DNA of 64,000 nt, taken from positions 4,774,001-4,838,000 of the forward strand of contig OZ024766.1 of assembly GCA_964016885.1 (NCBI GenBank). The letters are read 5' to 3'. The notes below the pieces were generated by a model. That model made no database searches, was not told the DNA's origin, and saw nothing but the letters and a program-made list of their open reading frames with translations. Source of the DNA: Eledone cirrhosa. Taxonomy: Eukaryota. Made by a program: the position numbers and the translations under genes. This document shows, one piece after another, positions 19,053 through 64,000 of this stretch. How positions within the stretch are numbered: the first letter of the stretch is position 1; each line of letters begins with the position of its first letter.

Positions 19053-19053
19053 C

Positions 19054-19308: not shown

Positions 19309-19347
<39 letters not shown>

Positions 19348-22202: not shown

Positions 22203-22355
22203 AGAAGCAATGTTGTATTTGACGGACTGCATAGCAACACTGTATGATTGACGGTCAGTACAGTCGAGAAGATCTTTGTCCTTCTGTACTGTTCGGCTTC
22301 TTCCATCGTTGCGAATCACTGCGTACTTGGTTGAGCAACTGCCCACTATATCGGT
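22203..22355 (-). CDS. Apolipophorin-like exon 5 (TDIVGSCSTKY...KDKDLLDCTDR...NIAS)
   Basis: 153 nt, phase 0-0. E|TDxxGxCxTxY and KxKDLxxC motifs of Vitellogenin_N. Confidence 0.92.
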
Positions 22356-23050: not shown

Positions 23051-24274
23051 GTATGTGTGTATATTATTGTTATTATTATTATTATTATTATTGTTATTAA
23101 TGTATGTGTGTGTATATGTGTGAGTGAGTATGTGTGTGTGTGTGTATATGTATGTATATGTATACCCCCCACACACACCTTCCTGAACATGCAACCCCGT
23201 TCTTCCCCCAACCCTCACTTTCACACACACACACACGCACACCTAACCACACACACCACCTTCAGCCCTCCCCGCTCGGACACCCCGTCTCCCTCTCCCC
23301 ACTCCACCCGCCACCACCTCTACTCACCCCACACCCTTCCACCACCTGTTTACCCCCCTTTTAATTTCAGTTTATTTTGATCATGCCTTTATTTTTAAAT
23401 TTTCTCATTCCTTGTATTTTGATCATGCTTTATTTTTATTTATTATTTATTATATTTTTGTCTTTATTTGTTAATTTTTCATTCGCACCGTTTCCTTTCG
23501 CTATATGTCTCTCCACCACTCCCCTACACACCTTTTGAACTCTCACCTGAAGAAGGGCTTATGCCCGAAACGTCGTCCCCCACCTACCCCCCCCCCCTCT
23601 CCTGAGCGTGAATTCAATAAACATTTGTCGTACTGCCTCTCTGTTCTGTCCCTGTTCAATTTTTCATTATATATATATATATATATATGCTAGAGTAAAC
23701 CTCTTCAAATGAAGTTGATGTTTATTACGGTATGTCGAATATATTTATCTATAAAACTGTTTATATTGTATTTTGTCTGATGAAGGCATAGCATATTGTT
23801 AATATGATATCCCCGAAATATATATAATGAAATAGATATGGTTTTATAAATATAGTTTTCCATTTATTTAATATTGTATATATATATATATATATTTCTT
23901 TTTTTTTTTCTTTTCTTTTTATTTATTTATTATTATTATCTTTTTTTTTCTTTCTCCTCGTGCAATGGCCATACTCGATAATGAGGGGGCAGCCATCATG
24001 TGTGTATATATGTATGTATGTATGTATGTGTCTATACATATGTGTGTATGTATGTGTGTGTGTATATATGTGTGTGTATGTATGTGTGTGTGTGTATATG
24101 TGTGTATGTATGTATATATATATGTGTGTATGTATGTATGTATATATATATGCGTGTGTATGTATGTATGTGTATATATATATATAAATATATATATGTA
24201 TATATATGTGTGTGTATGTATGTATGTGTATATATATATATGTATATGTATGTATATATATGTGTGTGTATGTA

Positions 24275-24308
<34 letters not shown>

Positions 24309-24338
24309 AATATATCAGTATAGATATGTAGTTTAATG

Positions 24339-24370
<32 letters not shown>

Positions 24371-24575
24371 TATATACACACACATATATATGTACACACA
24401 TATATATACATATATACACACACATATATATATATACATATATACACATACATATATATATACACACACACATATATATATACACACACACACATATATA
24501 CACACATATATATATACACACACATATATATATATACACACATATATATATATATACACACATATATATATATAT

Positions 24576-24608
<33 letters not shown>

Positions 24609-24827
24609 CACACATATATATACACACATATATATGTACACACATATATATACATATATACACACACATATATATATATACATATATACACATACATATA
24701 TATATACACACACACATATATATATACACACACACACATATATACACACATATATATATACACACACATATATATATATACACACACACATATATATATA
24801 TATATACACACATATATATATATATAT

Positions 24828-24872
<45 letters not shown>

Positions 24873-24961
24873 TATACACACATATATATACACACACACA
24901 TATATATACACACATATATATACACACACACACATATATATACATATATATATCTACGTAC

Positions 24962-25186
24962 CTCAGTAAGAGTGACATCTATATCAAAAGAGTCCATGGA
25001 GTTCTGGAAGGCTGACAAGATACCCCGTTTCATGTTCAACACCCAGGCAGGCTCCCCAGACTGGGGACAGACCTGTTCAATACGACCGTCCTGGAAGGCA
25101 AACCTCAGGGGGTGGGCTGCGAGGGCTTCGGTGAACCTCTGGCTCCGGGAACCATCTTTGGAGTTCAAGTCTTTCACATCGGTGAT
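24962..25186 (-). CDS. Apolipophorin-like exon 4 (ITDVKD...PLRFAFQDGRIEQVCP...WVLNMKRGILSAFQN...TE)
   Basis: 225 nt, phase 0-0. Contains the WxLNxKRGILS motif diagnostic of LLTPs. Confidence 0.93.
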
Positions 25187-25231
25187 CTGTGGCGAGAGAG
25201 GGACCAATGTATTGATCGGTATTGATTTGAT

Positions 25232-25275
<44 letters not shown>

Positions 25276-25954
25276 GAGTGAGTGAGTGAGTGAGTGAGGG
25301 GCAGATATATATATATATAGAGAGAGAGAGTGAGTGAGGGGGAGATATAGATAGATATAGAGAGAGAGTGTGAGGGGGAGTATATATATAGAGAGAGAGA
25401 GTGAGGGGCAGATATATATATATATATAGAGAGAGAGTGAGGGGGGGGGGGATATAGATATATAGAGAGAGAGTGAGGGGGAGATGTAGATATAGAGAGA
25501 GAGTGAGGGGCAGATATATATATATATATATAGAGAGAGAGAGTGAGGGGGAGATATAGATATAGAGAGAGAGAGTGACGGGAAGATATAGATATAGAGA
25601 GAGAGAGAGTGAGGGGGGAGATATAGATATATATATATAGAGAGAGAGAGAGAGTGAGGGAGAGAGAGAGAGAGAGTAAGGCTGAGATATAGATAGAGAG
25701 AGAGAGTGAGGGGGAGATAGTTAGAGAGAGGGGGAGAGTGAGAGAATGAGGGGCAGATAGATAGATATATTTCCTTATTTGCCACAAGGGCGTACAAGAA
25801 AAGGGGACAGTTCAAAGACACATGGCGGGGATTTTACATACAGTCGTGTAAAAATATAAAAACAAACAATTATAACAATCGAAATCCCCAATAGGTGGAG
25901 AGGCATTACAAATGGGTCGTTTTATACCCCATAGATAGAACAACCCTCATCGAC

Positions 25955-26850
25955 ACAGTCTCCACCTCCTGCATAAACTCCTCTGCCTCCTTCACTGTAT
26001 TTGTCCCCAAAACTATGTCGTCGGCAAACTCAGCATCCGATATATTTTTCACCTTAATTCCCCTGCCCTGAGCCGGTGCTACAGTAAAGCCTGAAAATCC
26101 GCCTCTTCGTTGCTGTAGTGGAGTCTGTGCTGCTGTACAGGTCTGAGACTTGGACACTGACCAAGAAACTCACTCAGATGGTGGATGGGTGCTTCACGAG
26201 AATGCTGAGGACAGGTCTGAGACTTGGACACTGACCAAGAAACTCACTCAGATGGTGGATGGGTGCTACACGAGAATGCTGAGGATGGCTCATTGTTGTA
26301 GTGGAGTCTGTGCTGCTGTACGGGTCTGAGACTTGGACACTGACCGAGAAACTCACTCAGATGGTGGATGGGTGCTACACGAGAATGCTGAGGATGGGTC
26401 TGAGACTTGGACACTGACCAAGAAACTCACTCAGATGGTGGATGGGTGCTTCACGAGAATGCTGAGGATGGGTCTGAGACTTGGACACTGACCAAGAAAC
26501 TCACTCAGATGGTGGATGGGTACTACACGAGAATGCTGAGGATGGCTCATTGTTGTAGTGGAGTCTGTGCTGCTGTACGGGTCTGAGACTTGGACACTGA
26601 CCGAGAAACTCACTCAGATGGTGGATGGGTGCTACACGAGAATGCTGAGGATGGCTCTGAACATTAATCAGTATACACTGAGGATGAAGAACTCAGAGCT
26701 GTATGGGAGCCTCCAAAAAGTCAGCTCAAAAGTGACACAGAGGAGACTGAGGTTAGCTGGACATGCTCACCGACATCCAGAGTTGACATTGCACTCAGTG
26801 CTCCTGTGGGAGCCCCTACATGGACTGCACACACTGGAAGAGGAAGACCG
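25955..26850. mobile_element. RTE LINE fragments: minus-strand RT (FADD) and plus-strand rearranged repeats
   Basis: DAEFADDIVL on minus; VESVLLYGSETWTLT...DGCYTRMLR...RRLRLAGH on plus. Confidence 0.8.
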
Positions 26851-26973
26851 AGACTATATATATATAATTGGGATTATACTCAGGTATATCCTAATCTTTG
26901 TTGAGTGAGATTGAGTTGGTCAGAGTATCGCTTAAAGCTTTCTCTGTTAATGTATTAAATATATATATATATA

Positions 26974-27354
26974 TACGATATTAAACAAATGGAAACTATA
27001 TTTATATTTATAAAACCATATTTATTTCGTTATATATATTTCTGGGATATCATATTAAAAATATGTTATGCCTTCCTCAGACAAAATACAATACATAAGC
27101 TGTTTTATAAATAATTAGTGACATACCTTGTGATAATGCAACTTCCTTTTAAAAAGTTGATTTGGTAGTTGATTTTTTAAAAGGAAGTTGCATTATCACA
27201 AGGTATGTCACTAATTATTTATAAAACAGCTTATGTATTGTATTTTGTCTGAGGAAGGCATAACATATTTTTAATATGATATCCCAGAAATATATATAAC
27301 AAAATAAATATGGTTTTATAAATATAAATATAGTTTCCATTTGTTTAATATCGT
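26974..27354. repeat. Near-perfect inverted repeat, ~180-bp arms, ~20-bp spacer
   Basis: acgatattaaacaaatgg... mirrored by ...ccatttgtttaatatcgt. Related single copy at 23710-23877. Confidence 0.92.
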
Positions 27355-27439
27355 AAACCTACTCCAGAAACTGTTGAGTGCTTTTATATCAGTTATAAAA
27401 TATTTACTCGTTGTAACCCAACAATCTTAAATAAAACTT

Positions 27440-27470
<31 letters not shown>

Positions 27471-27520
27471 TACACAGCTCCAAAGTAGCCCAAAGGAGAC
27501 TGAGGTTAGCTGGACATGCA

Positions 27521-27955
27521 ACTACCCCAGTGTATTACTGGTACTTTATTTTATCGACCCTGTAATAACTGTTTCTACTTTTGGCACAAGGCCAGCAATT
27601 ACCCAGTGTATTACTGGTACTTTATTTTATCAACCCTGTAATAATTGTTTCTACTTTTGGCACAAGGCCAGCAATTACCCCAGTGTATTACTGGTACTTT
27701 ATTTTATCGACCCTATAATAACTGTTTCTACTTTTGGCACAAGGCCAGCAATTACCCCAGTGTATTACTGGTACTTTATTTTATCGACCCTATAATAACT
27801 GTTTCTACTTTTGGCACAAGGCCAGCAAATGCCCCCAGTGTATTACTGGTACTCTATGTTATCGACCCTCGGCGGGATTTGAACTCAGAACGTAAAGGGC
27901 CGTAACTCCGTGCCGCAAAGCATGGCGTCCGGCGCTCTACCGATTATTGCCGCCA
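27521..27955 (-). mobile_element. SINE family B with 77-bp x ~4.5 tail array
   Basis: tRNA-like head (B box gagttcaaatcc) then the same unit as 4287-5383. Confidence 0.85.
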
Positions 27956-28065
27956 AACCAACCACGCAACAAGGATGGTGCTGGTGATGATGATGATGAT
28001 GAAACAACAACAACAACAACAACAAGAATGATGAGGAGGAGGAGGGGGGGGGGGGTTTAACTTAC

Positions 28066-28226
28066 CCTCATGATAAAGTCACACTGTGAGATGGGTTCAA
28101 TCTCCATCTTGGCCCTTATTGTCATGGTGGGTTCACTGTTTGAGGCCCCGTTGAAGAGGTTTGAGGTGGCTGCTATGTAGTCATACTGGTAGACCATATC
28201 AGGTTTGTAGTTGAACTTGTTGCTGC
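28066..28226 (-). CDS. Apolipophorin-like exon 3 ([16 protein letters not shown]...QCDFIMR), start of Vitellogenin_N domain
   Basis: AG/GT ends, 161 nt, phase 1-0. KFxY...Y-x-Y-x-Y pattern typical of the LLT domain start. Confidence 0.88.
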
Positions 28227-28275
28227 CTGGTGACGGTGGGGAGGAGAGAGAGAGAGAGAAGTTTAGTAGAGGATA

Positions 28276-29605
28276 TATGTGTATGTATGTATGTGTGTAT
28301 GTATGTGTGTATGTATGTGTGTGTGTGTATGTATGTGTGTATGTATGTATGTATGTATGTGTGTATGTATGTGTGTATGTATGTGTGTATGTGTGTGTGT
28401 ATGTATGTGTGTATGTATGTGTGTATGTATGTGTGTATGTATGTATGTATGTATGTATGTGTGTATGTATGTGTGTATGTATGTGTGTATGTATGTGTGT
28501 ATGTATGTGTGTATGTATGTGTGTATGTATGTGTGTATGTATGTGTGTATGTATGTATGTATGTATGTGTGTATGTATGTGTGTATGTATGTGTGTATGT
28601 ATGTGTGTATGTATGTGTGTATGTATGTATGTATGTATGTGTGTATGTATGTGTGTATGTATGTGTGTATGTATGTGTGTATGTATGTGTGTATGTATGT
28701 GTGTATGTATGTGTGTATGTATGTATGTATGTATGTGTGTATGTATGTGTGTATGTATGTGTGTGTGTGTATGTATGTGTGTATGTATGTATGTATGTAT
28801 GTGTGTATGTATGTGTGTATGTATGTGTGTATGTATGTGTGTATGTATGTATGTATGTATGTGTGTATGTATGTGTGTATGTATGTATGTATGTATGTGT
28901 GTATGTATGTGTGTATGTATGTGTGTATGTATGTGTGTATGTATGTGTGTATGTATGTGTGTATGTATGTGTGTATGTATGTGTGTATGTATGTATGTAT
29001 GTATGTGTGTATGTATGTGTGTATGTATGTGTGTATGTATGTGTGTATGTATGTGTGTATGTATGTATGTATGTATGTATGTATGTATGTGTGTATGTAT
29101 GTGTGTATGTATGTGTGTATGTATGTGTGTATGTATGTGTGTATGTATGTGTGTATGTATGTGTGTATGTATGTATGTATGTATGTGTGTATGTATGTGT
29201 GTATGTATGTGTGTATGTATGTGTGTATGTATGTGTGTATGTATGTGTGTATGTATGTGTGTATGTATGTGTGTATGTATGTATGTATGTATGTGTGTAT
29301 GTATGTGTGTATGTATGTGTGTATGTATGTGTGTATGTATGTGTGTATGTATGTGTGTATGTATGTGTGTATGTATGTGTGTATGTATGTGTGTATGTAT
29401 GTGTGTATGTATGTGTGTATGTATGTATGTATGTGTGTGTGTGTATGTATGTATGTGTGTGTGTATGTATGTGTGTATGTATGTGTGTGTGTGTATGTAT
29501 GTGTGTGTGTGTGTGTATGTGTGTATGTATGTATGTATGTATATATATGTATGTATGTATATATATATATATGTATGTATATTATATGTATGTATATATA
29601 TATGT

Positions 29606-29639
<34 letters not shown>

Positions 29640-29683
29640 GTATATATATATATACACCCAGCTTCTATATATATACACCCTGT

Positions 29684-29733
<50 letters not shown>

Positions 29734-29955
29734 CCAGCTTCTATATATATACACCCTGTTGATATATATATATATATACACCCAGCTTCTATATATATAC
29801 ACCCAGCTTCTATATATATATACACCCAGCTTCTATATATATACACCCTGTTGATATATATATATATATATATACACCCAGCTTCTATATATATACACCC
29901 TGTTGATATATATATATATATATATACACCCAGCTTCTATATATATACACCCTGT

Positions 29956-29989
<34 letters not shown>

Positions 29990-30122
29990 CCAGCTTCTAT
30001 ATATATACACCCTGTTGATATATATATATATATATATATACACCCAGCTTCTATATATATACACCCTGTTGATATATATATATATACACCCAGCTTCTAT
30101 ATATATACACCCTGTTGATATA
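28276..30122. repeat. (TATG/TGTG)n microsatellite followed by cacccagcttc/caccctgttg minisatellite
   Basis: Directly visible periodicity. Confidence 0.95.
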
Positions 30123-30135
30123 TAACGTTATTTAC

Positions 30136-30192
30136 CTGAACATGTTTGTGCACAAGTTGTCTGGTCTTGGCCTCCTCTTAGCTGGATTGGAC
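30136..30192 (-). CDS. Apolipophorin-like exon 2 ([19 protein letters not shown])
   Basis: tttcag acceptor, G|gtaaa donor, 57 nt, phase 1-1. CxxxC motif preceding the LLT beta-barrel. Confidence 0.75.
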
Positions 30193-30267
30193 CTGAAATA
30201 TAGAATATTATACATACATGTTGTGTGTGTGTATACATATATATACATCTATGTGTAAATGTATATA

Positions 30268-30392
<125 letters not shown>

Positions 30393-30426
30393 CATACATG
30401 TGTGTATATATATATATACACACATA

Positions 30427-30488
<62 letters not shown>

Positions 30489-30496
30489 TATGTGTG

Positions 30497-30529
<33 letters not shown>

Positions 30530-30538
30530 ATACATACA

Positions 30539-30587
<49 letters not shown>

Positions 30588-30652
30588 GCATATATATATA
30601 TATATACACACATATGCCTATATATATATATATATATATATGCATATGTGTG

Positions 30653-30702
<50 letters not shown>

Positions 30703-30796
30703 CATACATGTGTGTATATATATATACACACATATGCATATATATATATATACACACATATGCATATATATATATATATATATATGCATATGTGTG

Positions 30797-30871
<75 letters not shown>

Positions 30872-31576
30872 CGATAGAAATGTGGTAAGGAACCAGGTGG
30901 ACCATAACGCACCAAAGTACTCAATACTAGAATTAGCCGTCGAAACCGCTTGAGCTCTGCCGTCGGGGTCCTACTCGTTCCTATATATATATATATATAT
31001 TTATACATATATATAATAGGGGAAGAGTCTTAGCGTTTCGGACGTTAGTCCTTCATTAGAAAATTCGAATGAGAAATTAAAGAAGACATTTAATAGAAGA
31101 GAGAGGAGACGGGCAGTGGCAGAGACGACAGAAAAAAATGGGTTTTTAAGATGAAAAACCCCCAGGTCTATTCACATCACCATCTTTTGGAATATATATT
31201 TAAGTGAAATTTATCACCAATATGTGGCGTTGCCCCAGCTTGGCCCCCTCCCCTCGGCTGGAACGGATAATAGAATATACTTTATATCTCGATAGAAATG
31301 ATTGCTTGAAAAATCCCTAATTTAGAGAATAATAAAAAGAAATATCTTTAGTTAAAAATACAGAAAGACGTAGGGAAAGATCCTAGTAAAGTTATCTAAA
31401 GTAATAATAATTTCATAAGCAGTTTATCCTATGGGTATAGTCTTAGTTAAGTACTCTAAAACTATAGGGCTCAACAAATATAATCCTTATTGCAATTTCT
31501 TGAGTAAAGGACTTGCACTACATACATCCCAACTGAAAAGACTGCTGATCCTAATGAACTATTACTATATGTGAAA

Positions 31577-32605
31577 TGAGATTGGATGGCACATATACCC
31601 GCCTCTTAATGAGAGTGCAAAACCTATCCTGGAAACGACATCCCACCTTGTCTAAAATCTATGGCAAACTCCCTCCAGCCTCTGCCCTTCTAAAATCCCG
31701 GAGAGCTCAATTTGCTGGCCACTGTCACCGTGCCAGCAATGAAATCATATCCGCTCTCTTGCTCTGGAACCCTGACTCTGAGAGGAGATTGGATGGCACA
31801 TATACCCGCCTCTTAATGAGAGTGCAAAACCTATCCTGGAAACGACATCCCACCTTGTCTAAAATCTATGGCAAACTCCCTCCAGCCTCTGCCCTTCTAA
31901 AATCCCGGAGAGCTCAATTTGCTGGCCACTGTCACCGTGCCAGCAATGAAATCATATCCGCTCTCTTGCTCTGGAACCCTGACTCTGAGAGGAGATTGGA
32001 TGGCACATATACCCGCCTCTTAATGAGAGTGCAAAACCTATCCTGGAAACGACATCCCACCTTGTCTAAAATCTATGGCAAACTCCCTCCAGCCTCTGCC
32101 CTTCTAAAATCCCGGAGAGCTCAATTTGCTGGCCCCTGTCACCGTGCCAGCAATGAAATCATATCCGCTCTCTTGCTCTGGAACCCTGACTCCAGCCTGA
32201 CTAGGAGTAGGAAGGAAGCTGTCATTCCCTGACGTTATCTCTAGGGATACGGGAATCAGCAGACAGGACCTGGGGGGCAGCGATGGGGGACAGGGGATTC
32301 TGGGGCACCTGACTCCAGCCTGACTAGGAGTAGGAAGCTGTCATTCCCTGACGTTATCTCTAGGGATACGGGAATCAGCAGACAGGACCTGGGGGCAGCG
32401 ATGGGGGACAGGGGATTCTGGGGCACCTGACTCCAGCCTGACTAGGAGTAGGAAGCTGTCATTCCCTGACGTTATCTCTAGGGATACGGGAATCAGCAGA
32501 CAGGACCTGGCGGGCAGCGATGTGGGGGACAGGGAATTCTGGGGCATGAGAGTGAGATCCATCATCTCGACAGTAGTCGACGAGTGATGATGATGATGAT
32601 GATGA
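31577..32605 (+). mobile_element. RTE LINE 3' end with 210-bp x3 and ~120-bp x3 arrays, (GAT)n tail
   Basis: RLDGTYTRLL...RRAQFAGHCHR...LLLW repeated three times. Confidence 0.85.
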
Positions 32606-32691
32606 TATATATATAAGTGTATCGAGGGTTCAATCGGGAGGTAACCACAGTAAGTTAGGTACTCAATACATGGCAGAGTATAAATATTTAA

Positions 32692-32806
32692 TATAGAAAT
32701 GGCTTCTACAGGACCAGAATTGTTTCATTCGGGAGAAATCATCAGGAGCTTCCTGATGATTTTTCACGAATGAAACAGTTCTAGTCCTGTAGAAGCCATT
32801 TCTATA
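32692..32806. ncRNA. Inverted pair of hammerhead-like motifs
   Basis: Plus arm gcttc-CTGATGA-tttttcacgaat-GAAA-cagttctagtcctgTA-gaagc. Related minus-strand copy at 34777-34828. Confidence 0.55.
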
Positions 32807-33016
32807 TATATATATATATATATTTTATTTGAGTGACCCGAATCTTCCTGGTCGTTTATTTTCGGCTGCATGGGTGATTTTAGGCATGACCTCTATGTGT
32901 TGGTATTTTAACAATAGTTATAGCTCTGATTTTTCCAAATTACTGAGCACTCTGCCACATATATCGGATATTGTTTATCGTGATTTCGTGGGCTGAAATT
33001 CCGATTCTCGATTATT

Positions 33017-33074
<58 letters not shown>

Positions 33075-33138
33075 TATATGTTGAATTAAAACTGCACTAT
33101 CCACAAGTGTTTTTTAGCCTTCATATCATGTTCTCCTG

Positions 33139-33205
33139 TTTTATCTGATGAAAACACAAATATTATTGCATGATGATGTTTGTTTTTGAAATGCGCATAA
33201 TAAAA
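33139..33205 (+). ncRNA. Minimal type I hammerhead motif
   Basis: ttttat-CTGATGA-aaaca...tgttttt-GAAA-tgcgca-TA-ataaaa. 6-bp stem I and palindromic stem III. Confidence 0.6.
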
Positions 33206-33237
33206 TACATGGAACTCCTTTAACCATCTTTTGATCT

Positions 33238-33293
<56 letters not shown>

Positions 33294-34647
33294 TGTGTTA
33301 CCTTTTCAACATATTGTATTCTAAAGTGCCCAGGATTTCCTCTCCCTTGAGCACATTATTTGCAGGGAACGGCGAGTGTTAATGTATCGTGATATACATA
33401 TATATATATTGTTATACTTGGGGAGGGTCATATTTGTGTAATATTGTTTCTACTTTTGGCACAAGGCCAGCAATTATCCCAGTGTATTACTGGTACTTTG
33501 TGTAATATTGCCAGAATTAATAACAGAACACACTCACTGTTTGGTTGGTTTTCGCTTCTCGCTTCTGTGTCTTTTATATCGGTAATCTAACTTACTCGGT
33601 CCTCAATGTTGCCATATATATATATATATAACGAAGGAAATGTGGTAAGGAACCAGATGGACCATAACGCACCAGAGTACTCAATACTTAGGGTAGTAGA
33701 GAGGGTAATAGGAAAATGTTTGACCCCGACGGCAGAGCTCAAGCCGTTTCGACGGCTATTTCTGGACGTCCAGAAATAGCCGTCGAAACGGCTTGAGCTC
33801 TGCTGTCGGGGTCAAACATTTTCATATATATATATATATATATAACGAAGGAAATGTGGTAAGGAACCAAGTGGACCATAACGCACCAAAGTACTCAATA
33901 CTTAGGGTAGTAGAGTGGGTAATAGGAACGAGTGGGACCCCGACGGCTGAGCTCAAGCCGTTTCGACGGCTAATTCTGGACTAATTTCAGTCCAGAATTA
34001 GCCGTCGAAACGGCTTGAGCTCAGCCGTCGGGGTCCTACTCGTTCCTATATATATATATATATATAAATATATATATATATATGGAAAATGATAAAGATT
34101 TGAAAAACAAAAGCACCTAAAGTGTTTATATTTTATATATACATGATTAGACCTGTCAAGTTTGGAGTGAGTGAAAGATATATTCTCTTGTGATAATAGT
34201 TATAGCTTTCATTATGTAAAATCTCCCCAATTTTGCCTCACCGTTTTTTCATGTTGTTTCCCGTTTGGGGAGTCATTTTACTGAATAAAAAACCCGGCAT
34301 CTTAACTGTAACTGTGTAAAATATACGCGGCAGTCAACAGGTTAAGACGGGTTTTGAATAGTTTGTTTTTTGTTTTGTTTTTTCTCCTTAATTTGCTAGC
34401 GTTCCATTTGTAATGTTATTGTCGCTTATGCTCTTGTTAAGACAAGGAACACACAACTGGTTGTATTTTGTGTTGTCCCTTACGTCAAGGAGGAAAGTAA
34501 AGAAGACAAAAACAAACATAATTCTTAACAAGGGGCATAATTCTGGTCCGACCAGACATCGAAGGTTATGTGTGTGTGTGTGTGTGCGTGTGTATATAAA
34601 CTCTACTTCGGTATTGAGTACACCTTTCTCTCAGCCGTCAACCACAT

Positions 34648-34698
<51 letters not shown>

Positions 34699-35701
34699 TA
34701 TCCTGGGTTCAATTGGGAGTAACCACAGTAAGTAAGGTACTCAATATATAGCAGAGTATAAATATTTAATATAGAAATGGCTTCTACAGGACTAGGACTG
34801 TTTCATTCGGGAGAAATCATCAGGAATATTTATAGTTACTCTTTCCTATACAATAATCAAACAAATATTAACAGAAATTTCCAGACACATCACATCATAT
34901 ATAACTACTATAAACTTTTCAATAAGCACAATATCAAGAGTAGCTATAATTGCTCAGATATTCAAATATTTCAAATATCCAACTGGAAAGTGATATAAAT
35001 CTTGGGTAATGTCCAACAGAATATGGTCACGAATACAAACGGCCAAAATGGGATTCCGCCAAAGGATCCTTGGAGTAATGTTACACAATAGAGTGGGTAG
35101 CTCGGAGATGAGAGAGAATCACTCCAGGTAGAGCTGCTACTTTTACTGAATTGGGAGATCACAGCTCTGATACTATGGAGATGTGGACAGATTTTTACAA
35201 GCAGAACCAACTAGTGGGAGACCCAGGGGTAGACCTAGAGCAAAGATGGTTGGATTGGGTAATATCCATGAGCTTGGCTGGTCTCACCTTTGGATTAAGC
35301 CAGATCAATCGGAAACGGTTGCTTCAGCCAGGTCCCTCTGGAGGGAGTGTTTGAAGGTCTCTGTATTCATTACAACTCCCAGAAATAATTCAGCAATGAA
35401 AGAGTGTATTGCCAAGCTGTATCAGCCATTTCCTTGGATAACATCATATATTGCAGGACAGATCTTACAGGCAAAACTAACCAGCATGAGATCAAGTGGT
35501 AGACCCACTGAACAAGATGCTTTAATACCATCCATGAGGTCGGTTGGTCGTGCTTTGTGGGAGATCCAGCCTGATCGGTCGGAAACAGTTCCTTCTGAAA
35601 GGACCCTGCATCTGCTGCTACGACCCTCACAGGAATAAGTGGGCAAAGAAGAAGAATAAAAGCCAGCCAGATAGATAGACAGATAGACAGAGAAGAAGTG
35701 T

Positions 35702-37718
35702 TTAACCCTTTAGTGTACAAACCGGCCAAAACCAGCCAGAATTCTCTACCTCTTTCTGTTGAAACTGGCTGTAACCGGTCGCTCAAACTGATTTTAAGGT
35801 ATTGTTCTCAAAATAAATACTTTCAAAATCTCATAGATTCGATGTTATGTGAGGTAACTAGGTGAGGTAAAGCCTTTACCATGAAAATACAATAGTATCG
35901 ATAGAGTAATGTAAATATTATGTGAGATATTATGTGAGGTAAAGCCTTTACTGTGACAATACAATAGTATATATAGAGTAAGGTAAATGTTATGTGAGAT
36001 ATTATGTGAGGTAAAACCTTTACTGTGACAATACAATAGTATATATAGAGTAATGTAAATGTTATGTGAGATATTATGTGAGGTAAAGCCTTTACTGTGA
36101 CAATACAATAGTATATATAGAGTAATGTAAATGTTATGTGAGATATTATGTGAGGTAAAGCCTTTACTGTGACAATACAATAGTATATATAGAGTAATGT
36201 AAATGTTATGTGAGATATTATGTGAGGTAAAGCCTTTACTGTGAAAATACAATAGTATATATAGAGTAATGTAAATGTTATGTGAGATATTATGTGAGGT
36301 AAAGCCTTTACTGTGACAATACAATAGTATATATAGAGTAATGTAAATATTATGTGAGATATTATGTGAGGTAAAGCCTTTACTGTGACAATACAATAGT
36401 ATATATAGAGTAATGTAAATGTTATGTGAGGTAAAGCCTTTACTGTGACAATACAATAGTATATATAGAGTAATGTAAATGTTATGTGAGATATTATGTG
36501 AGGTAAAGCCTTTACTGTGAAAATACAATAGTATATATAGAGTAATGTAAATGTTATGTGAGATATTATGTGAGGTAAAACCTTTACTGTGAAAATACAA
36601 TAGTATATATAGAGTAATGTAAATGTTATGTGAGATATTATGTGAGGTAAAACCTTTACTGTGAAAATACAATAGTATATATAGAGTAATGTAAATGTTA
36701 TGTGAGATATTATGTGAGGGTAAAACCTTTACTGTGAAAATACAATAGTATATATAGAGTAATGTAAATGTTATGTGAGATATTATGTGAGGTAAAACCT
36801 TTACTGTGAAAATACAATAGTATATATAGAGTAATGTAAATGTTATGTGAGATATTATGTGAGGTAAAACCTTTACTGTGAAAATACAATAGTATATATA
36901 GAGTAATGTAAATATTATGTGAGATATTATGTGAGGTAAAGCCTTTACTGTGAAAATACAATAGTATATATAGAGTAATGTAAATGTTATGTGAGATATT
37001 ATGTGAGGTAAAACCTTTACTGTGAAAATACAATAGTATATATAGAGTAATGTAAATGTTATGTGAGATATTATGTGAGGTAAAACCTTTACTGTGAAAA
37101 TACAATAGTATATATAGAGTAATGTAAATGTTATGTGAGATATTATGTGAGGTAAAACCTTTACTGTGAAAATACAATAGTATATATAGAGTAATGTAAA
37201 TGTTATGTGAGATATTATGTGAGGTAAAACCTTTACTGTGAAAATACAATAGTATATATAGAGTAATGTAAATGTTATGTGAGATATTATGTGAGGTAAA
37301 ACCTTTACTGTGAAAATACAATAGTATATATAGAGTAATGTAAATGTTATGTGAGATATTATGTGAGGTAAAACCTTTACTGTGAAAATACAATAGTATA
37401 TATAGAGTAATGTAAATGTTATGTGAGATATTATGTGAGGTAAAACCTTTACTGTGAAAATACAATAGTATATATAGAGTAATGTAAATGTTATGTGAGA
37501 TATTATGTGAGGTAAAACCTTTACTGTGAAAATACAATAGTATATATAGAGTAATGTAAATGTTATGTGAGATATTATGTGAGGTAAAACCTTTACTGTG
37601 ACAATACAATAGTATATATAGAGTAATGTAAATGTTATGTGAGATATTATGTGAGGTAAAGCCTTTACTGTGAAAATACAATAGTATATATAGAGTAATG
37701 TGAATGCTAAAGGGTTAA
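35702..37718 (+). mobile_element. TTAA-flanked MITE (piggyBac-like) with internal 84-bp x ~22 satellite
   Basis: TTAA-CCCTTTAG ... CTAAAGGG-TTAA termini. Confidence 0.75.
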
Positions 37719-37745
37719 AAAAGTTTCATTGTACAAGGCACTTAC

Positions 37746-37800
37746 CGGATTGTCCAAGAGCCACAAGTGTAGCGAGGAATACAAAATAAGAAGACTGCAT
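37746..37800 (-). CDS. Apolipophorin/ApoB-like LLTP exon 1 (signal peptide [18 protein letters not shown])
   Basis: ATG, hydrophobic 18-aa leader, then G|gtaagt donor. 55 nt, phase 1, matching exon 2. Lies just downstream of the TATA/Inr. Confidence 0.8.
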
Positions 37801-55185: not shown

Positions 55186-55549
55186 GGAGAGATGTCGTCT
55201 GCTTCTGAAACACCACCGAAACAGTTTTATTTATTTTGTGTAAGTTTTTCTCTGAAATATTTTCCTTAAAAAATGTTAAAAAGTTGAAAATTTGGGGTAA
55301 TTTCAGGGAGTTTAGAGAGTGAACCCTTTAAATTTTTATATTTTGTATTTTATTTTAGGGATTTTGGGGGGAGAGAATCGTAAAATATGTTTAAATGTGT
55401 AAATATATACATATATATACATATATATATAAATATATATATGTATATATATATACACATATATATATATATAAATATGTGTATATATATATAATGTATA
55501 TATATATATAATGTATATATATATATAATGTATATATACACACATATAC

Positions 55550-55754: not shown

Positions 55755-55965
55755 GTATATATATGTATATATGTATATATATGTATATATATATATATAT
55801 GTATATATATATGTATATACATATATACATATACATGTATTGTTGTTGTTTTTAACAAAACGTTTTCTCTTTGTTTCTTTCTTTCTATATTTTATTTCCT
55901 TTTTTTATTTAAATCTAGATTTGTTTGGTTTGGAACCTTTACACTGTCTGTTGTGACAACTGACA

Positions 55966-56700
<735 letters not shown>

Positions 56701-56739
56701 CCACCACCACCACCACCACCAATAACAACACCAAGCCCT

Positions 56740-59700
56740 ATGGGAGATATCTATAAAGACCCCAGTCCACCATATCACACCGAGCATGGTGAAGATATCA
56801 AAAGTAGACCAAATTATCTTAACCAACATACTGATAACTGTGAAGATATATATCGGGATATGATAACATGTGGTCGTGATAAAAATATCATAATGGAAGA
56901 TGGTAGTTATAAAGATATCACTCCAACATATCATATACAGGATCACCCACATGTTAATAATTCTGAAGATATATATGATGATATAAAACCACGTGGTGTT
57001 GATAAAGATATCATAATGGAAGATGGTAGTTATAAAGATATCACTCCAACATATCATGTACAGGATCACCCACATGTTAATAATTCTGAAGATATATATG
57101 ATGATATAAAACCACGTGGTGTTGATAAAGATATCATAATGGAAGATGGTAGTTATAAAGATATCACTCCAACATATCATGTACAGGATCACCCACATGT
57201 TAATAATTCTGAAGATATATATGATGATATAAAACCACGTGGTGTTGATAAAGATATCATAATGGAAGATGGCAGTTATAAAGATATCACTCTGTCGTGT
57301 CACATACAGGGTGGTGAAGATATCAAAAATAGACCGAATTATTTTAACCAACATGTTGATAATTCTAAAGATATATATAGTGATATGATAACATGTAGTG
57401 GTGATAAAGATATCTCAAATATTAATGCTGGTTATAATGATATCACTCCATCATATCACACACAAGATGGTAGAAATACCCAAAACAGAACAAATTATCT
57501 TAACCAAAATGTTGATAATTCTGAGGATATTTATAATGATATCAACCCATTGGATAAATCATGTGATGATGATAATGATACTTTAATGGAAGATGGTGGT
57601 TATAAAGATGGTGGAAATCTAGAAAACAGACCACATTTTCTTAATCTACATAGTGATATCAACACAGTTTATAAAACATATGTTGATAAAGATATCTTAA
57701 TAGAAGATGATATATATAAAGATATCACAGCATCATATCACACACAGGATGGTAGAAATACCCCAAAAAGTTCATATTATCTTAACCAACATATTAAATC
57801 AGTGGATAAGACATGTGATGATAAAGATATCATATTCGAAGATGATATATATAAAGATATCACTCCGTCATATCACACACAGGATAGCAAAAATATCAAA
57901 TGTAGACCTAATTTTCTTAACCACCATATTGATAATTGTGAAGATATATATGATGATATCAAACCAATGAATAAAACATGTGGTGATGATAAAGATATCA
58001 TAATGGAAGATGATATATATAAAGACACTATCCCATCATATCACATACAAGATGGAGACAATATAGAAAACAGACCAAATTTTCTTAACCAACATATTGA
58101 TAACTGTGAAGATATATATATTGATATTAAAACATGTGATGATGATGATGATGATGATAAAGGTATCTTAATGAAGAATTATATATATAAAGATACTATT
58201 CTATCGTATCACACACAAGATGGCAGAAATAAGCAAAGCAGACCTAATTTTCTTACCCAACATAGTGATAATTCTGAAGATATATATAGTGATATTAAAC
58301 CATGTGGTGATGATAAAGATATCTTAATGAACGGTGGTGGTTATAAAGATATCACAGCTTCATATCACACACAGGATGGTAGAAATACCCAAAACAGACC
58401 AAATTATCTTACACAACATATTGACATCTGTGAAGATATATATGGTGATATTAAACCATGTGGTGATGATAAAGATATTGTTATGAAATACTTAAATGAC
58501 AGCAAAGAAGTGTCCAACGAGGGAGAGAACTCTTTTGCAAGAGGATATGCTATAAAGGGAGATAACTTTGGTGACTTCTACGACAGCCGGGGAGATAACG
58601 CGTCAGTGAGAAGAGGTGCTGGCAAGGGGAGTAACTCTGATGACTTCTGTAACAACAGGAGAGATAATTACTCTGTGGGAGGAGGCTTTGTAAAGGGAGG
58701 CAACTCTGGTCACTTCTGCAACAGAAAGGGAAGCAACTCTGATGGTTTCTGCAACTATTTAGGAGACAACTCTGATGACTTCTGCAACAACAGGGGACGC
58801 AATTCTAATGACTTCTGCAACAACATGGAAGGCAACTCTGCTGACTTCTGCCATAGTGGGGGAGGCAACTCTGATGACTTCTGCCATAGTGGGGGAAGCA
58901 ACTCTGATGACTGCTGCAACAACAGGGGAAGCAACTCTGATGACTGCTGCAACAACAGGGGAAGCAACTCTGATGACTGCTGCAACAACAGGGGAAGCAA
59001 CTCTGATGACTGCTGCAACAACAGGGGAAGCAACTCTGATGACTGCTGCAACAACAGGGCAGGCAACTCTGATGATCTCTGCAACAACAGGGGAGGCAAT
59101 TCAGGTGATCTCGGCAACAGGGGAGGCAACTCTGGTGACCTCTGTGACTATAAACCGCCAACCGAAGGTAGCTATGGAAACAGTCCTATCTTCTCTACAG
59201 CAGCAGTTCTTCCTTCATATTACTGTACAGCAGCAGCAGCAATAGAACCACCAGCATCATCACCATCAGCAACCCAACCTCCAGCATCATCACCACCGCA
59301 AGCAATAGAACCAACAACGCCACCGCCACCACCATCGGCAGCAGCACTATTACCATCAGTACCACCACCACCACCACTACAACTACCATCATCAGCAACA
59401 GCAGCAGAGGGAAGTGTGTTGGTTGGTGATCTGCCTAGATATGAGTTTAACAACAACAACAACAGCAACAGCAACAGTAACGACAACAACAACAGCAACA
59501 CCAACACCAACAGTAACAACATCAGCAACAACAACAACAACACCAGCAACAACAACAACAACAGCAACACCAACAACAACACCAGCAACAACAACAACAA
59601 CAGCAACACCAACACCAACAGTAACAACATCAGCAACAACAACAACAACAACAGTAACAACAACAACAACCACAACAGTAACAACCACAACAACAACAGC

Positions 59701-62700
59701 AACAGTAACAACAACAACAACCACAACAGTAACAACCACAACAGTAACAACCACAACAGCAACAACAACAACAGCAACAACAACAACAACAGCATCAGCA
59801 ACAACAACAACAACATCAGCAACAACAACAACATCAACAACAGTAATAACAACAACAACAATAACAACATCAGCAACAACAACAACAGTAACAACATCAG
59901 CAACAACAACAGCAACAACATCAGCAACAACAACCACAACAACAACATCAGCAACAGCAGCAACAACAACAACAGTCACAACAACAACAACAGTAACAAC
60001 AACAACAACAACACCACCAGCAGCAACAACAGTAACAACAACATTAACAACAGCGGCAGCAGCAGCAGCTATGATATGTTTGCAGACTCCGACTGTGGCG
60101 AGGGGGATACAGAGATGTCAGAGAAGGAAAGATTGTACTACTGTATGACAGAGAGAGGGGGGAGAGGAGAAGGGGAGGGAGGAGGAGAAGAAGAAGAAGA
60201 AAAGCAACATCAGAATCAACGACAACAAAATCATCATCATCATCAACAGCAACAACAACAACAGCAACAACAACAGCAACAAACTAATATCTTCATCACC
60301 AACAACAAGAGTTTAGCTGAGATGGAATTGAAACAAGCCTTGGCTACCACTACCACTACTACTACTAATACTACTACTACTACTACCAACGGATGTGGTT
60401 TAGCTGTTGTAGGACTAACACAAGCCTATACTACTGATACTATTCCTACTACCACTCAGAAGAATGTCTTGGCTGATCTAGGACGAACACAAACACCTAT
60501 AAGCAATACCACTACCAACAACTGTGATTTAGCTGGGATGGGCTTGTCACAAGACTGTACCACTAAGTATACCACCACCACCACCACCAGCAATGGTAGT
60601 TTAGCTGGTACAGGACTACCACAGACCTCTACCACTACCAACAACTGTGATTTAGCTGGGATGGGATTGATACAAGACTCTACCACTAACTATACTACCA
60701 CCACCACCACCAGCAATGGTAGTTTAGCTGGTATAGGACTACCACAAACTTCTACCACTACCAACAACTGTGGTTTAGCTGGGAGGGGATTGATACAAGA
60801 CTCTACCACTAACTATACTACCACCACCACCACCAGCAATGGTAGTTTAGCTGGTATAGGACTACCACAAACTTCTACCACTACCAACAACTGTGATTTA
60901 GCTGGGATGGGATTGATACAAGACTCTACCACTAACTATACCACCACCACTACCACCAGCAATGGTAGTTTAGCTGGTATAGGACTACCACAAACCTCTA
61001 CCACTACCAACAACTGTGATTTAGCTGGGATGGGATTGTCACAAGACTATACCACCACCACCAGCACCAGCAATGGTAGTTTAGCTGGTATAGGACTACC
61101 ACAAACCTCTACCACTACCAACAACTGTGGTTTAGCTGGGATCGGATTGATACAAGACTCTACCACTAACTATACTACCACCACCACCACCAGCAATGGT
61201 AGTTTAGCTGGTATAGGACTACCACAAACCTCTACCAACAACTGTGGTTTAGCTGGGATCGGATTGATACAAGACTATACCACAAACTATACTACCACCA
61301 CCAGCAATGGTAGTTTAGCTGGTATAGGACTAACACAGACCTCTACCGCTACAACTACCACTACTACTAATACCACTACCACCAACACCACTACTAGTAG
61401 TAGTACTTCTAATAATAATAATAATAATGATAATAATAATAATATCAGCAGCACCAACAGTAAAGAGAATGCTGTGATAGGACCAAAACAATCCTATACC
61501 ACCACTACTACTACTACTTCTACTAATACTTCTACTACTTCTGCTACTACCAGCAACAATGGTTTAGCTGGTGTAGGACTCAATCTACGTACCGCAGGCA
61601 TTGTATCATCATCTTGCTGCCACGTGACTGCTGCAGCCGCCACAGGGAGAAGTAACTATTGTGACGCAGGCAACGGAGTGTCTGGCAGATGCGGAAACTC
61701 GACAGACACGAACTGTGGAAAGCCGGATGTGTGCGGAAGTCCGACGATGGAGATAACTTATGGAAACGGACGAGGCACGTGTGGAAATCTGCTGAACACA
61801 AACTCCGGACACTCGGACATAACAAATGGAAAAATGACGAACATGAACGCCGAACGTGGAAACACGGATGAAAGTTGGAAAAGGATAAAGACAAACAGCG
61901 GAAATCCAGATATAAGTGGAAATCTGACAAATAAGATTTGCGGAATTTCATATCTATGGGAAAATCCGATGACCGCAAGTCAAAGGATCCCGGATGTAGG
62001 TGAGGTTTTCATGAAAATAAATTTGGGAAATTTAGAGAGCAAGAAAGAAGAAGAACTGATAATGGAAGAAAAATATGTTTCTATGATCAATTCCATCACC
62101 AACAACAGTAGTTTAGCTGAAATAAGACCGAAACAAGACTATATTACTACTAATACCACCACTACCAACAGTAGTATGGCTGAAACAGGACTGAAATCAG
62201 TGTCTAAAATTACTAATACCACCACCAACAACAGTAGTATGATTGGGACAGGACTGAAACAAGCTTATGTTACTAATAATATCCCTAATAACAACAGCCA
62301 AGCTGGGACAGGACTGAAACCAGCCTCTTCTGTGATTAATTCCATCACCAACAACAGTAGTCTAGCTGGAATAGGACTGAAACAAGCTTATGTTACTAAT
62401 AATACCCCTAATAACAACAGCCAAGCTGGGACAGGACTGAAACCAGCCTCTTCTGTGATTAATTCCATCACCAACAACAGTAGTCTAGCTGGAATAGGAC
62501 TGAAACAAGCTTATGTTACTAATAATATCCCTAATAATAACAGCCAAGCTGGGACAGGACTGAAACAAGCCTCTTCTGTGATTAATTCCATCACCAACAA
62601 CAGTAGTCTAGCTGGAATAGGACTGAAACAAGCTTATGTTACTAATAATATCCCTAATAATAACAGCCAAGCTGGGACAGGACTGAAACCAGCCTCTTCT

Positions 62701-64000
62701 GTGATTAATTCCATCACCAACAACAGTAGTCTAGCTGGAATAGGACTGAAACAAGCTTATGTTACTAATAATATCCCTAATAATAACAGCCAAGCTGGGA
62801 CAGGACTGAAACAAGCCTCTTCTGTGATTAATTCCATCACCAACAACAGTAGTCTAGCTGGAATAGGACTGAAACAAGCTTATGTTACTAATAATATCCC
62901 TAATAACAACAGCCAAGCTGGGACAGGACTGAAACCAGCCTCTTCTGTGATTAATTCCATCACCAACAACAGTAGTCTAGCTGGAATAGGACTGAAACAA
63001 GCTTATGTTACTAATAATATCCCTAACAATAACAGCCAAGCTGGGACAGGACTGGAACCAGCTTCCCTTATAACTAACATCACTACCAACAACATTTGTA
63101 TAGCTGAATCAGGACTGAAACGGGCCTCTTCTACGATTAATACTCCCACCACCAACAACAGGAGTATAGCTGAGATAAGACTGAAACAAGACGACTATAT
63201 TACTACTAATATCCCTACCAACAGTAGTTTAGCTGAGATAGAACTAAATCAAACTCCTATTATTATTAATACAATCACCAACAACAGAAGTTTAGCTGAA
63301 ATAGGACTGAAACCAGCCTCTAAAGTTACTAGCACCACCGACAACAGGGGTTTAGCTGAAATAAGATACAGACAAGGCTCTACTCCTACTAATACCACCA
63401 CCACCACAACCACCACCAATGACACGAGGATAGGACTGAAGCAAGGCTCTATTCCTAATACCACCACCACCAATGGTTTCACTGGGATGGAACTGAAACA
63501 AGCTTGTACTACCAATACCACCACCAAGTACAGCAGCATGACTGAAACGAGGCTCCAACAAGTCTCTACTAATACCACTACCAACAACATTTGTATAGCT
63601 GAAACAAGACTGAAACCAGTGTCTCAAACTACTAATACCACCACCAACAGAAGCTTGGCTGAGATAGGAATGGAACAAGACTATATTACTACTAATATTA
63701 CTACTAATAATACCACCAACAACAACAGCCAAGCAAGGACGAAACTAAAACAAACTCCTATTACTAATAATACTAATAATACCATCACCAACAATGGTTT
63801 AACTGGGGCTGAACTACAACCAGCTTCTGTTACAACTAATACCATCACCAACAATAGTTTCACTGGGGCTGAACTACAACCAGCTTCTGTTACAACTAAT
63901 ACCATCACCAACAATAGTAGTCTAGCTGGAATAGGACTGAAACAAGCTTATGTTAATGATGGCATCACCAACAACAGTAGCCTAACTGAAACAATACTGA
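56740..64000 (+). CDS. Giant uninterrupted ORF (at least 2,420 aa, 3' incomplete); repeat-rich low-complexity protein of unknown function
   Basis: Manual translation from ATG 56740 (MGDIYKDPSPPYHTEH...) finds no stop up to base 64000. In-frame TGA upstream at 56623. All repeat-unit length variation preserves the frame. Confidence 0.8.
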   Translation, partial: MGDIYKDPSPPYHTEHGEDIKSRPNYLNQHTDNCEDIYRDMITCGRDKNIIMEDGSYKDITPTYHIQDHPHVNNSEDIYDDIKPRGVDKDIIMEDGSYKDITPTYHVQDHPHVNNSEDIYDDIKPRGVDKDIIMEDGSYKDITPTYHVQDHPHVNNSEDIYDDIKPRGVDKDIIMEDGSYKDITLSCHIQGGEDIKNRPNYFNQHVDNSKDIYSDMITCSGDKDISNINAGYNDITPSYHTQDGRNTQNRTNYLNQNVDNSEDIYNDINPLDKSCDDDNDTLMEDGGYKDGGNLENRPHFLNLHSDINTVYKTYVDKDILIEDDIYKDITASYHTQDGRNTPKSSYYLNQHIKSVDKTCDDKDIIFEDDIYKDITPSYHTQDSKNIKCRPNFLNHHIDNCEDIYDDIKPMNKTCGDDKDIIMEDDIYKDTIPSYHIQDGDNIENRPNFLNQHIDNCEDIYIDIKTCDDDDDDDKGILMKNYIYKDTILSYHTQDGRNKQSRPNFLTQHSDNSEDIYSDIKPCGDDKDILMNGGGYKDITASYHTQDGRNTQNRPNYLTQHIDICEDIYGDIKPCGDDKDIVMKYLNDSKEVSNEGENSFARGYAIKGDNFGDFYDSRGDNASVRRGAGKGSNSDDFCNNRRDNYSVGGGFVKGGNSGHFCNRKGSNSDGFCNYLGDNSDDFCNNRGRNSNDFCNNMEGNSADFCHSGGGNSDDFCHSGGSNSDDCCNNRGSNSDDCCNNRGSNSDDCCNNRGSNSDDCCNNRGSNSDDCCNNRAGNSDDLCNNRGGNSGDLGNRGGNSGDLCDYKPPTEGSYGNSPIFSTAAVLPSYYCTAAAAIEPPASSPSATQPPASSPPQAIEPTTPPPPPSAAALLPSVPPPPPLQLPSSATAAEGSVLVGDLPRYEFNNNNNSNSNSNDNNNSNTNTNSNNISNNNNNTSNNNNNSNTNNNTSNNNNNSNTNTNSNNISNNNNNNSNNNNNHNSNNHNNNSNSNNNNNHNSNNHNSNNHNSNNNNSNNNNNSISNNNNNISNNNNINNSNNNNNNNNISNNNNSNNISNNNSNNISNNNHNNNISNSSNNNNSHNNNNSNNNNNNTTSSNNSNNNINNSGSSSSYDMFADSDCGEGDTEMSEKERLYYCMTERGGRGEGEGGGEEEEEKQHQNQRQQNHHHHQQQQQQQQQQQQQTNIFITNNKSLAEMELKQALATTTTTTTNTTTTTTNGCGLAVVGLTQAYTTDTIPTTTQKNVLADLGRTQTPISNTTTNNCDLAGMGLSQDCTTKYTTTTTTSNGSLAGTGLPQTSTTTNNCDLAGMGLIQDSTTNYTTTTTTSNGSLAGIGLPQTSTTTNNCGLAGRGLIQDSTTNYTTTTTTSNGSLAGIGLPQTSTTTNNCDLAGMGLIQDSTTNYTTTTTTSNGSLAGIGLPQTSTTTNNCDLAGMGLSQDYTTTTSTSNGSLAGIGLPQTSTTTNNCGLAGIGLIQDSTTNYTTTTTTSNGSLAGIGLPQTSTNNCGLAGIGLIQDYTTNYTTTTSNGSLAGIGLTQTSTATTTTTTNTTTTNTTTSSSTSNNNNNNDNNNNISSTNSKENAVIGPKQSYTTTTTTTSTNTSTTSATTSNNGLAGVGLNLRTAGIVSSSCCHVTAAAATGRSNYCDAGNGVSGRCGNSTDTNCGKPDVCGSPTMEITYGNGRGTCGNLLNTNSGHSDITNGKMTNMNAERGNTDESWKRIKTNSGNPDISGNLTNKICGISYLWENPMTASQRIPDVGEVFMKINLGNLESKKEEELIMEEKYVSMINSITNNSSLAEIRPKQDYITTNTTTTNSSMAETGLKSVSKITNTTTNNSSMIGTGLKQAYVTNNIPNNNSQAGTGLKPASSVINSITNNSSLAGIGLKQAYVTNNTPNNNSQAGTGLKPASSVINSITNNSSLAGIGLKQAYVTNNIPNNNSQAGTGLKQASSVINSITNNSSLAGIGLKQAYVTNNIPNNNSQAGTGLKPASSVINSITNNSSLAGIGLKQAYVTNNIPNNNSQAGTGLKQASSVINSITNNSSLAGIGLKQAYVTNNIPNNNSQAGTGLKPASSVINSITNNSSLAGIGLKQAYVTNNIPNNNSQAGTGLEPASLITNITTNNICIAESGLKRASSTINTPTTNNRSIAEIRLKQDDYITTNIPTNSSLAEIELNQTPIIINTITNNRSLAEIGLKPASKVTSTTDNRGLAEIRYRQGSTPTNTTTTTTTTNDTRIGLKQGSIPNTTTTNGFTGMELKQACTTNTTTKYSSMTETRLQQVSTNTTTNNICIAETRLKPVSQTTNTTTNRSLAEIGMEQDYITTNITTNNTTNNNSQARTKLKQTPITNNTNNTITNNGLTGAELQPASVTTNTITNNSFTGAELQPASVTTNTITNNSSLAGIGLKQAYVNDGITNNSSLTETIL

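Follow-up and report, generated by a model that had tools for sequence, protein, structure and literature searches.

Several described proteins resemble, in different respects, the open reading frame (ORF) analyzed here. In the choanoflagellate Monosiga brevicollis, the RM2 repeat of RTKB2 is phosphorylated by, and binds, a Src-like kinase, as tested biochemically (available text of PMC3584944). According to the same text, RM2 of RTKB shares with the first module of our ORF lineage-restricted acidic tandem repeats, in which a conserved tyrosine stands in a Src-type phosphorylation and SH2 context. The likeness to molluscan RLCD proteins, as far as the available part of PMC4897951 describes them, lies in modular build, lineage restriction, biased composition, repeat slippage, gain and loss, and a tendency to disorder. 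Src substrate scaffolds of the ADAP/FYB type similarly combine many acidic tyrosine motifs with a Pro-rich stretch in a disordered chain (available part of PMC4584950). In the excerpted accounts of Asn-rich proteins of Dictyostelium and Plasmodium, long poly-Asn/Gln tracts derive, as here, from triplet repeats in coding DNA. Further Src-family scaffolds with a tyrosine array and Pro-rich sequence are p130Cas and nephrin-Nck.

The ORF lies at the right-hand end of a 64,000-nucleotide stretch (below, the window) of Eledone cirrhosa contig OZ024766.1 (assembly GCA_964016885.1, positions 4,774,001 to 4,838,000). Frame 1 is stop-free from the ATG to the window edge, where it is still open; the product so far amounts to ~260 kDa with a pI of 4.8 (a lower bound, since the frame is open at 63999). 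The stop-free stretch of this frame begins at 56626, directly after an in-frame stop, while the five other frames contain 147, 321, 87, 73, and 220 stops over the ORF. An earlier note on this DNA had claimed an open frame from this ATG to the window end and had listed the modules that it encodes; the 2420 codons, set against 73–321 stops elsewhere, bear out the frame, and all module positions match within a few tens of bases. The ORF is confirmed as real. The tyrosine motif array, the unity of the Thr-rich modules, the character of the insert, and the neighboring gene were newly recognized in the present analysis. Coordinates are collected in the table.

Table. Features of the ORF and its surroundings within the window.
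Feature	Positions	Strand	Description
Large lipid transfer protein gene (vitellogenin/apolipophorin-type)	978..37800	-	PF01347, PF09172 above cut-off
Candidate upstream exon (speculative)	55192..55239	+	GTAAGT donor at 55240, score 7.4
Candidate 5′ UTR part of exon (weak, inferred)	55919..56739	+	acceptor-like site before 55919, GA repeat
ORF	56740..63999	+	at least 2420 codons
Module 1, aa 1-586	56740..58497	+	11-12 degenerate acidic repeats, 38-57 aa; 22 Y-x-D motifs
Module 2, aa 587-803	58498..59148	+	linker, then ~14 copies of an 11-aa Gly/Asn/Ser/Asp/Cys repeat
Module 3, aa 804-903	59149..59448	+	Pro/Ala/Ser; two poly-Pro runs, 6 overlapping PxxP matches
Module 4, aa 904-1105	59449..60054	+	interrupted AAC array; Asn 137/202, Ser 38/202
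Module 5, aa 1106-1190	60055..60309	+	short acidic non-repetitive linker (one YxxM), then poly-Glu/His/Gln
Module 6a, aa 1191-1613	60310..61578	+	15-24 aa repeats: small hydrophobic core LAG-x-GL, Thr/Asn runs
In-frame insert, aa 1614-1780	61579..62079	+	within one unit of the module 6 family
Module 6b, aa 1781-2420+	62080..63999	+	6a family; 20-21 aa units; young 123-bp dimer array at center

Single minisatellites of the window yield open frames of up to 626 aa, and it was considered whether the ORF, too, might be open by chance, in satellite DNA that does not code or in a gene that died recently. The longest rival frame in 1–56600 (626 aa) lies inside a single 72-bp minisatellite and contains 90 distinct amino acid 4-mers (58–259 in long minisatellite frames overall), compared to 1305 in the ORF, which has only simple repeats in common with 1–56600. 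Frame-blind Markov models fitted to the DNA of the ORF itself (orders 2, 4, and 6, with 300 runs for each) produced frames of at most 197, 264, and 279 aa, respectively. In addition, eight unrelated modules and the insert all share one frame, and the insert's 167 non-tandem codons contain no stop, whereas shuffled versions give 10.2. Repeat offsets point the same way: 75 of 76 offsets in the ORF (frame-blind, no distance limit) are multiples of 3, the sole exception being a CAG/AAC low-complexity match, compared to 74 of 184 control offsets in 1–56600 (offsets <1500 only), with the caveat that offsets are correlated with one another and are not independent counts. The earlier statement that units keep frame was thus upheld. 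Gaps between neighboring units in a frame-blind alignment gave a noisier and weaker result (19/29 multiples of 3, against 2/10 in a control 105-bp non-coding family), and one realigned stretch required no gap. A frame open by chance is, in our estimate, highly improbable.

Contigs from three runs (X3–X5) of one sample, possibly the assembly's own and hence not independent, cover 26/30, 26/30, and 22/30 bins of 56690–58700, i.e., only the first ~2 kb, with zero indels. Contig totals near 1.4 Gb suggest that this sample is DNA. One X4 contig carries two substitutions near 58660, probably because a contig derived from a later repeat copy was placed on the wrong unit. In two runs, loose ends and a joint with extra letters were seen between repeat positions 57145–57168 and 58333–58355, reflecting either chimeric contigs or a related locus elsewhere. 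Two marine metatranscriptomes showed a share of 0.05; one of the two, when aligned, had 0 contigs on 56690–58700, which is informative neither way on expression.

Selection for coding, as proposed in the earlier note, is supported, mainly for frame (the offsets above) and for stops in module 1; residue change is near neutral, except in two tyrosine motifs of module 1 (below). In module 1, none of 125 distinct single-base variants creates a stop (4.9 expected, P 0.007), and over all four repeat families 2 of 246 do so (7.6 expected). Modules 2 and 6a (0/28 and 0/14, 0.4 expected each) are uninformative, and module 6b is not depleted (2/79, 2.0 expected), its stop variants arising from the splitting of double changes into single ones. 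Omega-like values of 0.70–0.85 across repeats, with the mutation spectrum allowed for, indicate weak amino acid constraint, and differences in module 1 are flat over codon positions (0.226/0.207/0.229). The DNA of the ORF is very probably translated, with most residues appearing to matter little.

Both the omega-like values and the flat codon-position differences would fit a translated ORF in which the 2400 residues amount to repeat bloat that an ordinary protein tolerates, its folded, conserved part lying beyond 64000. Selection would then remove only stops and frameshifts, and the tyrosine motifs would be a by-product of AT-rich slippage. The same reading is favored by the makeup of the window, 57% of which is tandem repeat, by the building of modules on AAC, ACC/ACT, GAT, and AT runs, and by the lack of a homologue for any module searched. 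Module 1 is old and diverged, and its depletion of stops shows that this part has long been translated, which is compatible with bloat as well as with function; the excess of invariant columns centered on tyrosine motifs, considered below, argues against bloat. We regard bloat as a credible, though unlikely, alternative.

Module 1 is made up of tandem acidic repeats with a conserved tyrosine in a Src-type context, the consensus having been compared by eye with published sites. Its 22 Y-x-D motifs comprise 15 I-Y-x-D and 13 Y-K/N-D motifs (6 common to both), and 12 of the module's motifs match [ED]-x-I-Y-x-D. Tyr and Asp are fixed, and the position that separates them is occupied by Arg, Asp, Ser, Asn, Ile, Gly, or Lys. 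The available texts of three sources give sequences that resemble the acidic-acidic-Ile-Tyr-x-Asp-Ile/Met pattern: the Src substrate peptide EEIYGEFF (PMC546003), the Src-family SH2 preference pYEEI (PMC4584950), and the RM2 site EEVYEAI (PMC3584944). Unlike in pYEEI, the +1 residue after Tyr is often non-acidic. In nine units of module 1, 8 of 52 columns are invariant, compared to 2.3 in a neutral star simulation (P 0.003), a value that is too optimistic, since the simulation ignores kinship among copies and rate variation and the motif was picked after the sequence had been seen. Six of the eight invariant columns are the Asp, Ile, Tyr, and Asp of two Tyr-centered motifs. Synonymous codons are present at the motif Ile and Asp, every Tyr codon is TAT, and the motifs sit on DNA resembling AT dinucleotide repeats; DNA-level causes of their conservation are possible. 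The 22 motifs are descendants of one or two ancestral motifs, and their copy number is not independent evidence.

Based on the constraint on the tyrosine motifs, their resemblance to Src/SH2 sites, and RM2 as the closest working precedent, we tentatively favor, at rather less than even confidence, an ORF that is likely a giant start-codon exon and encodes a putative intracellular, largely disordered, multivalent scaffold that tyrosine phosphorylation would switch. The acidic-x-Ile-Tyr sites of module 1 would be substrates of a Src-family kinase or a related one, and once phosphorylated, as pY-x-D-Ile/Met, they would bind SH2 domains. SH3 domains could bind the Pro-rich segment, which follows 230 residues later, with the Asn and Thr tracts acting as length-variable spacers. 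The gene may have grown through triplet slippage, the amplification of repeats in tandem, and a single insertion that kept the frame, and a folded domain may follow beyond 64000. Either alternative of the earlier note, a lineage-specific protein or a giant exon of a gene with its folded domain further right, may hold.

Upstream of the ATG, the candidate 5′ UTR part of the exon (821 bases) contains no ATG, and an N-terminal extension through its GA repeat was rejected because the repeat carries stops in all three frames. Splice sites were scored with a small model trained on the lipid transfer gene (15 donors, 13 acceptors). The best candidate for the 5′ boundary, the acceptor at 55919, scores 7.3 and ranks 19 of 1964 AG sites in 38000–64000, which is not distinctive; two acceptor-like sites inside the ORF, 61554 (10.9) and 59231 (10.1), score higher. 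Splicing the 55240 donor to 55919 would leave an upstream ORF of only 30 codons. An ATG-to-donor exon scan of 38000–56700 revealed no convincing signal-peptide exon, the hydrophobic candidates being translations of AT repeats. Donor-like sites in the ORF reach at most 6.4 (8.5–13.3 for the training donors), and the best acceptor score near the ATG is only 1.2. Given the latter value and the in-frame stop before 56626, it is unlikely that the ORF is an internal coding exon. The simplest reading of these signals would be one exon of at least 7.3–8.1 kb that holds the start codon.

The lipid transfer protein gene, whose start codon is at 37800, and the ORF are arranged head-to-head, 19 kb apart. 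The gene has at least 15 exons, with a signal peptide in exon 1. Its predicted exons lose frame after exon 15852–16107, as would be expected if an exon is missing, perhaps one lying within the 200-N gap (15227–15426), or if a donor was misassigned. The same 72-bp minisatellite occurs, inverted, at 35842–37706 and 39417–39979, flanking the first exon and promoter of this gene. Arrays of 30 and 145 bp with a shared spacer form an inverted pair at 41157–42330 and 50841–52961; the two lie ~8.5 kb from each other and may represent the termini of a mobile element. A further occurrence of the 145-bp array is at 21390–22056. A 77-bp unit makes up three separate arrays (4302–5383, 27518–27869, and 42552–43554), and a number of the window's arrays resemble fragments of interspersed repeats that were amplified in tandem. 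A tRNA-Ser(GGA)-like gene at 17116–17189 (minus strand; ARAGORN, Rfam 48.3 bits), in an intron of the lipid transfer gene, could be the head of a SINE.

Within the ORF, modules 6a and 6b proved to belong to a single repeat family (E 4e-22; 64% across an alignment of 594 bases); the earlier note's Thr-rich and Asn/Thr modules are both present but are not separate. The Cys/Gly/Asn segment described there as non-repetitive was located correctly, yet it is a very degenerate Gly-Asn repeat of 6–14 aa and interrupts a module 6 unit. Its CpG observed/expected ratio is 1.16, compared to 0.08–0.37 in the other modules of the ORF. Based on this ratio and on the interruption inside a single unit, the segment reads as a later in-frame insertion into the module 6 family. 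An ORF of the opposite strand was rejected as an explanation of the insert.

A CpG-rich insert of different origin, in a frame that is giant, intronless, and without relatives, is also what a mobile-element ORF or an integrated large DNA virus might present. Against this, no transposase, reverse transcriptase, or viral hallmark domain, nor any other transposon or viral domain, was detected by Pfam in the visible ORF. The insert had no match in viral, prokaryote, or metagenome contigs or in phage records; module 1 had none in metagenome contigs; and there is no other large complex ORF to the left within the window. We find a mobile or viral origin barely credible.

The absence of a known domain or signal peptide, as stated in the earlier note, was borne out by Pfam profiles and hydropathy. 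Neither a kinase, SH3, SH2, or PH domain nor any other adaptor-family domain was detected by Pfam in the visible 2420 aa. A hydropathy scan revealed no signal peptide (best 9-residue value of 0.33 in the first 60 aa) and no membrane span in 2420 aa (best 19-residue window of 1.36). FoldIndex was negative in four of the eight modules and slightly positive (0.05–0.16) in the other four. AlphaFold2 predicted no fold in two runs (mean pLDDT of 30.8 and 39.3), which, with alignments of 1 and 8 rows, is weak evidence of disorder. DUF6859 (PF21656) scored 35.1 bits on module 1, above its 27.1 cut-off, and was rejected as a sum of weak repeat matches: no stretch passes alone, the best one spans profile positions 67–92 of 96, and the whole ORF scores 17.3 bits.

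Word-indexed sequence searches returned nothing for aa 1–660 at E 0.001 (7998 candidates of 1331–4235 aa scored), nothing for the insert at E 0.1 (553 candidates of 306–2000 aa), and nothing for aa 1610–2420 among 7996 candidates. A phmmer search of aa 1–640 against 1.84 billion representatives produced two matches (E 3.4e-5 and 4.9e-4), one to a tandem-repeat protein of a leafhopper and one to a repeat protein rich in Asp. Neither was accepted as a homologue, since they are summed repeat matches; no RM2-related sequence was among these two. Residues 661–1609 were covered by Pfam only, plus Atlas from 1101, and proteins longer than 4235 aa were reachable for aa 1–640 only. Atlas returned a single weak cluster (score 0.78), named cell-surface glycoprotein, and a second Atlas search none; a PDB sequence search gave no match. 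Six motif strings did not occur in the literature searched, and cephalopod orphan and repeat-protein papers made no mention of this gene in the text searched.

The name of the Atlas cluster, a weak lead, would agree with a structural or secreted repetitive, low-complexity protein, such as a matrix, egg coat, cement, or mucin-like one. Acidic Tyr/His/Asp repeats would bind ions or cross-link, the Cys-Cys pairs found in five copies of the module 2 repeat would form disulfides, and Thr/Asn residues would be glycosylated. According to the available text of PMC4897951, matrix proteins of mollusks are typically built from modular repeats of low complexity, and that of PMC6386654 describes a squid secretory gland enriched in orphan genes. 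Module 6b contains 50 N-x-S/T sequons (mean of 28.6 and maximum of 40 in 500 shuffles), an excess that is seen in only one of eight modules and is inflated by copy number. Together with the lack of a signal peptide, a membrane span, and a convincing upstream signal exon, this speaks against secretion and leaves a cytoplasmic structural role possible. We consider the structural or secreted reading, on balance, rather unlikely.

The ORF illustrates clearly how a large gene tends to escape annotation: in the available text of PMC6386654, one cephalopod pipeline drops models more than half overlapped by masked repeats, keeping those with transcript and homology support. If the tyrosine array is functional, repeat DNA would have been turned into a high-valency, kinase-controlled docking platform; if the ORF is bloat, it is a measure of the unconstrained sequence that can be tolerated in an animal protein. 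A bolder form of the scaffold reading, which we judge quite improbable, is a lineage-specific giant signaling scaffold that the genome would have built from its own micro- and minisatellite DNA. An AT-repeat-derived Src-type motif would have been amplified to 22 copies and selectively kept, yielding an SH2-docking array of unusually high valency that is coupled to prion-like Asn tracts and to segments rich in Pro and in Cys; foreign CpG-rich DNA would later have been captured in frame.

Mucins have a signal peptide or membrane anchor and a Pro/Thr/Ser domain; the ORF is Thr-rich, but its visible part has neither a signal peptide nor a membrane span. Reflectins are rich in Met/Arg/Tyr and suckerins in Gly/Tyr/His/Ala, and the composition of the ORF is unlike both (Met 1.4%, Arg 2.5%, Gly 7.9%, Ala 4.3%, Tyr 3.3%). 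The RLCD proteins described in the available part of PMC4897951 are secreted mantle and shell proteins, usually Gly/Ala-rich, whereas the ORF is Asn/Thr/Ser-rich; the ORF was not assigned to the secreted RLCD matrix proteins, since the modular low-complexity build is present but the hydropathy scan found no signal peptide. Compared to the Asn-rich proteins of Dictyostelium and Plasmodium, as excerpted, the length of the ORF is mostly due to minisatellite-type repeats of 11–57 aa from several unrelated families and not to homopolymer runs alone. The ADAP motif is pYDGI (PMC4584950, available part), while that of the ORF is Y-x-D-I/M, in far more copies, and the visible 2420 aa have no adaptor-family domain. 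RM2, disordered in solution according to the available text of PMC3584944, has a pI of 3.9 (RM2-6), compared to 4.5 for module 1, and consists of six copies of ~80 aa in the C-terminal tail of a receptor kinase, whereas module 1 is N-terminal, with two tyrosine motifs in each unit. A receptor tail of the RM2 type was rejected on this position and on the lack of a membrane span or kinase domain in 2420 aa. The ORF appears to fit no family and may work in an RM2-like mode. Orphan proteins of modular, repetitive build are already familiar from mollusks; what is new here is how large the ORF is, that it lacks an export signal, and that it carries a tyrosine array of 22 copies.
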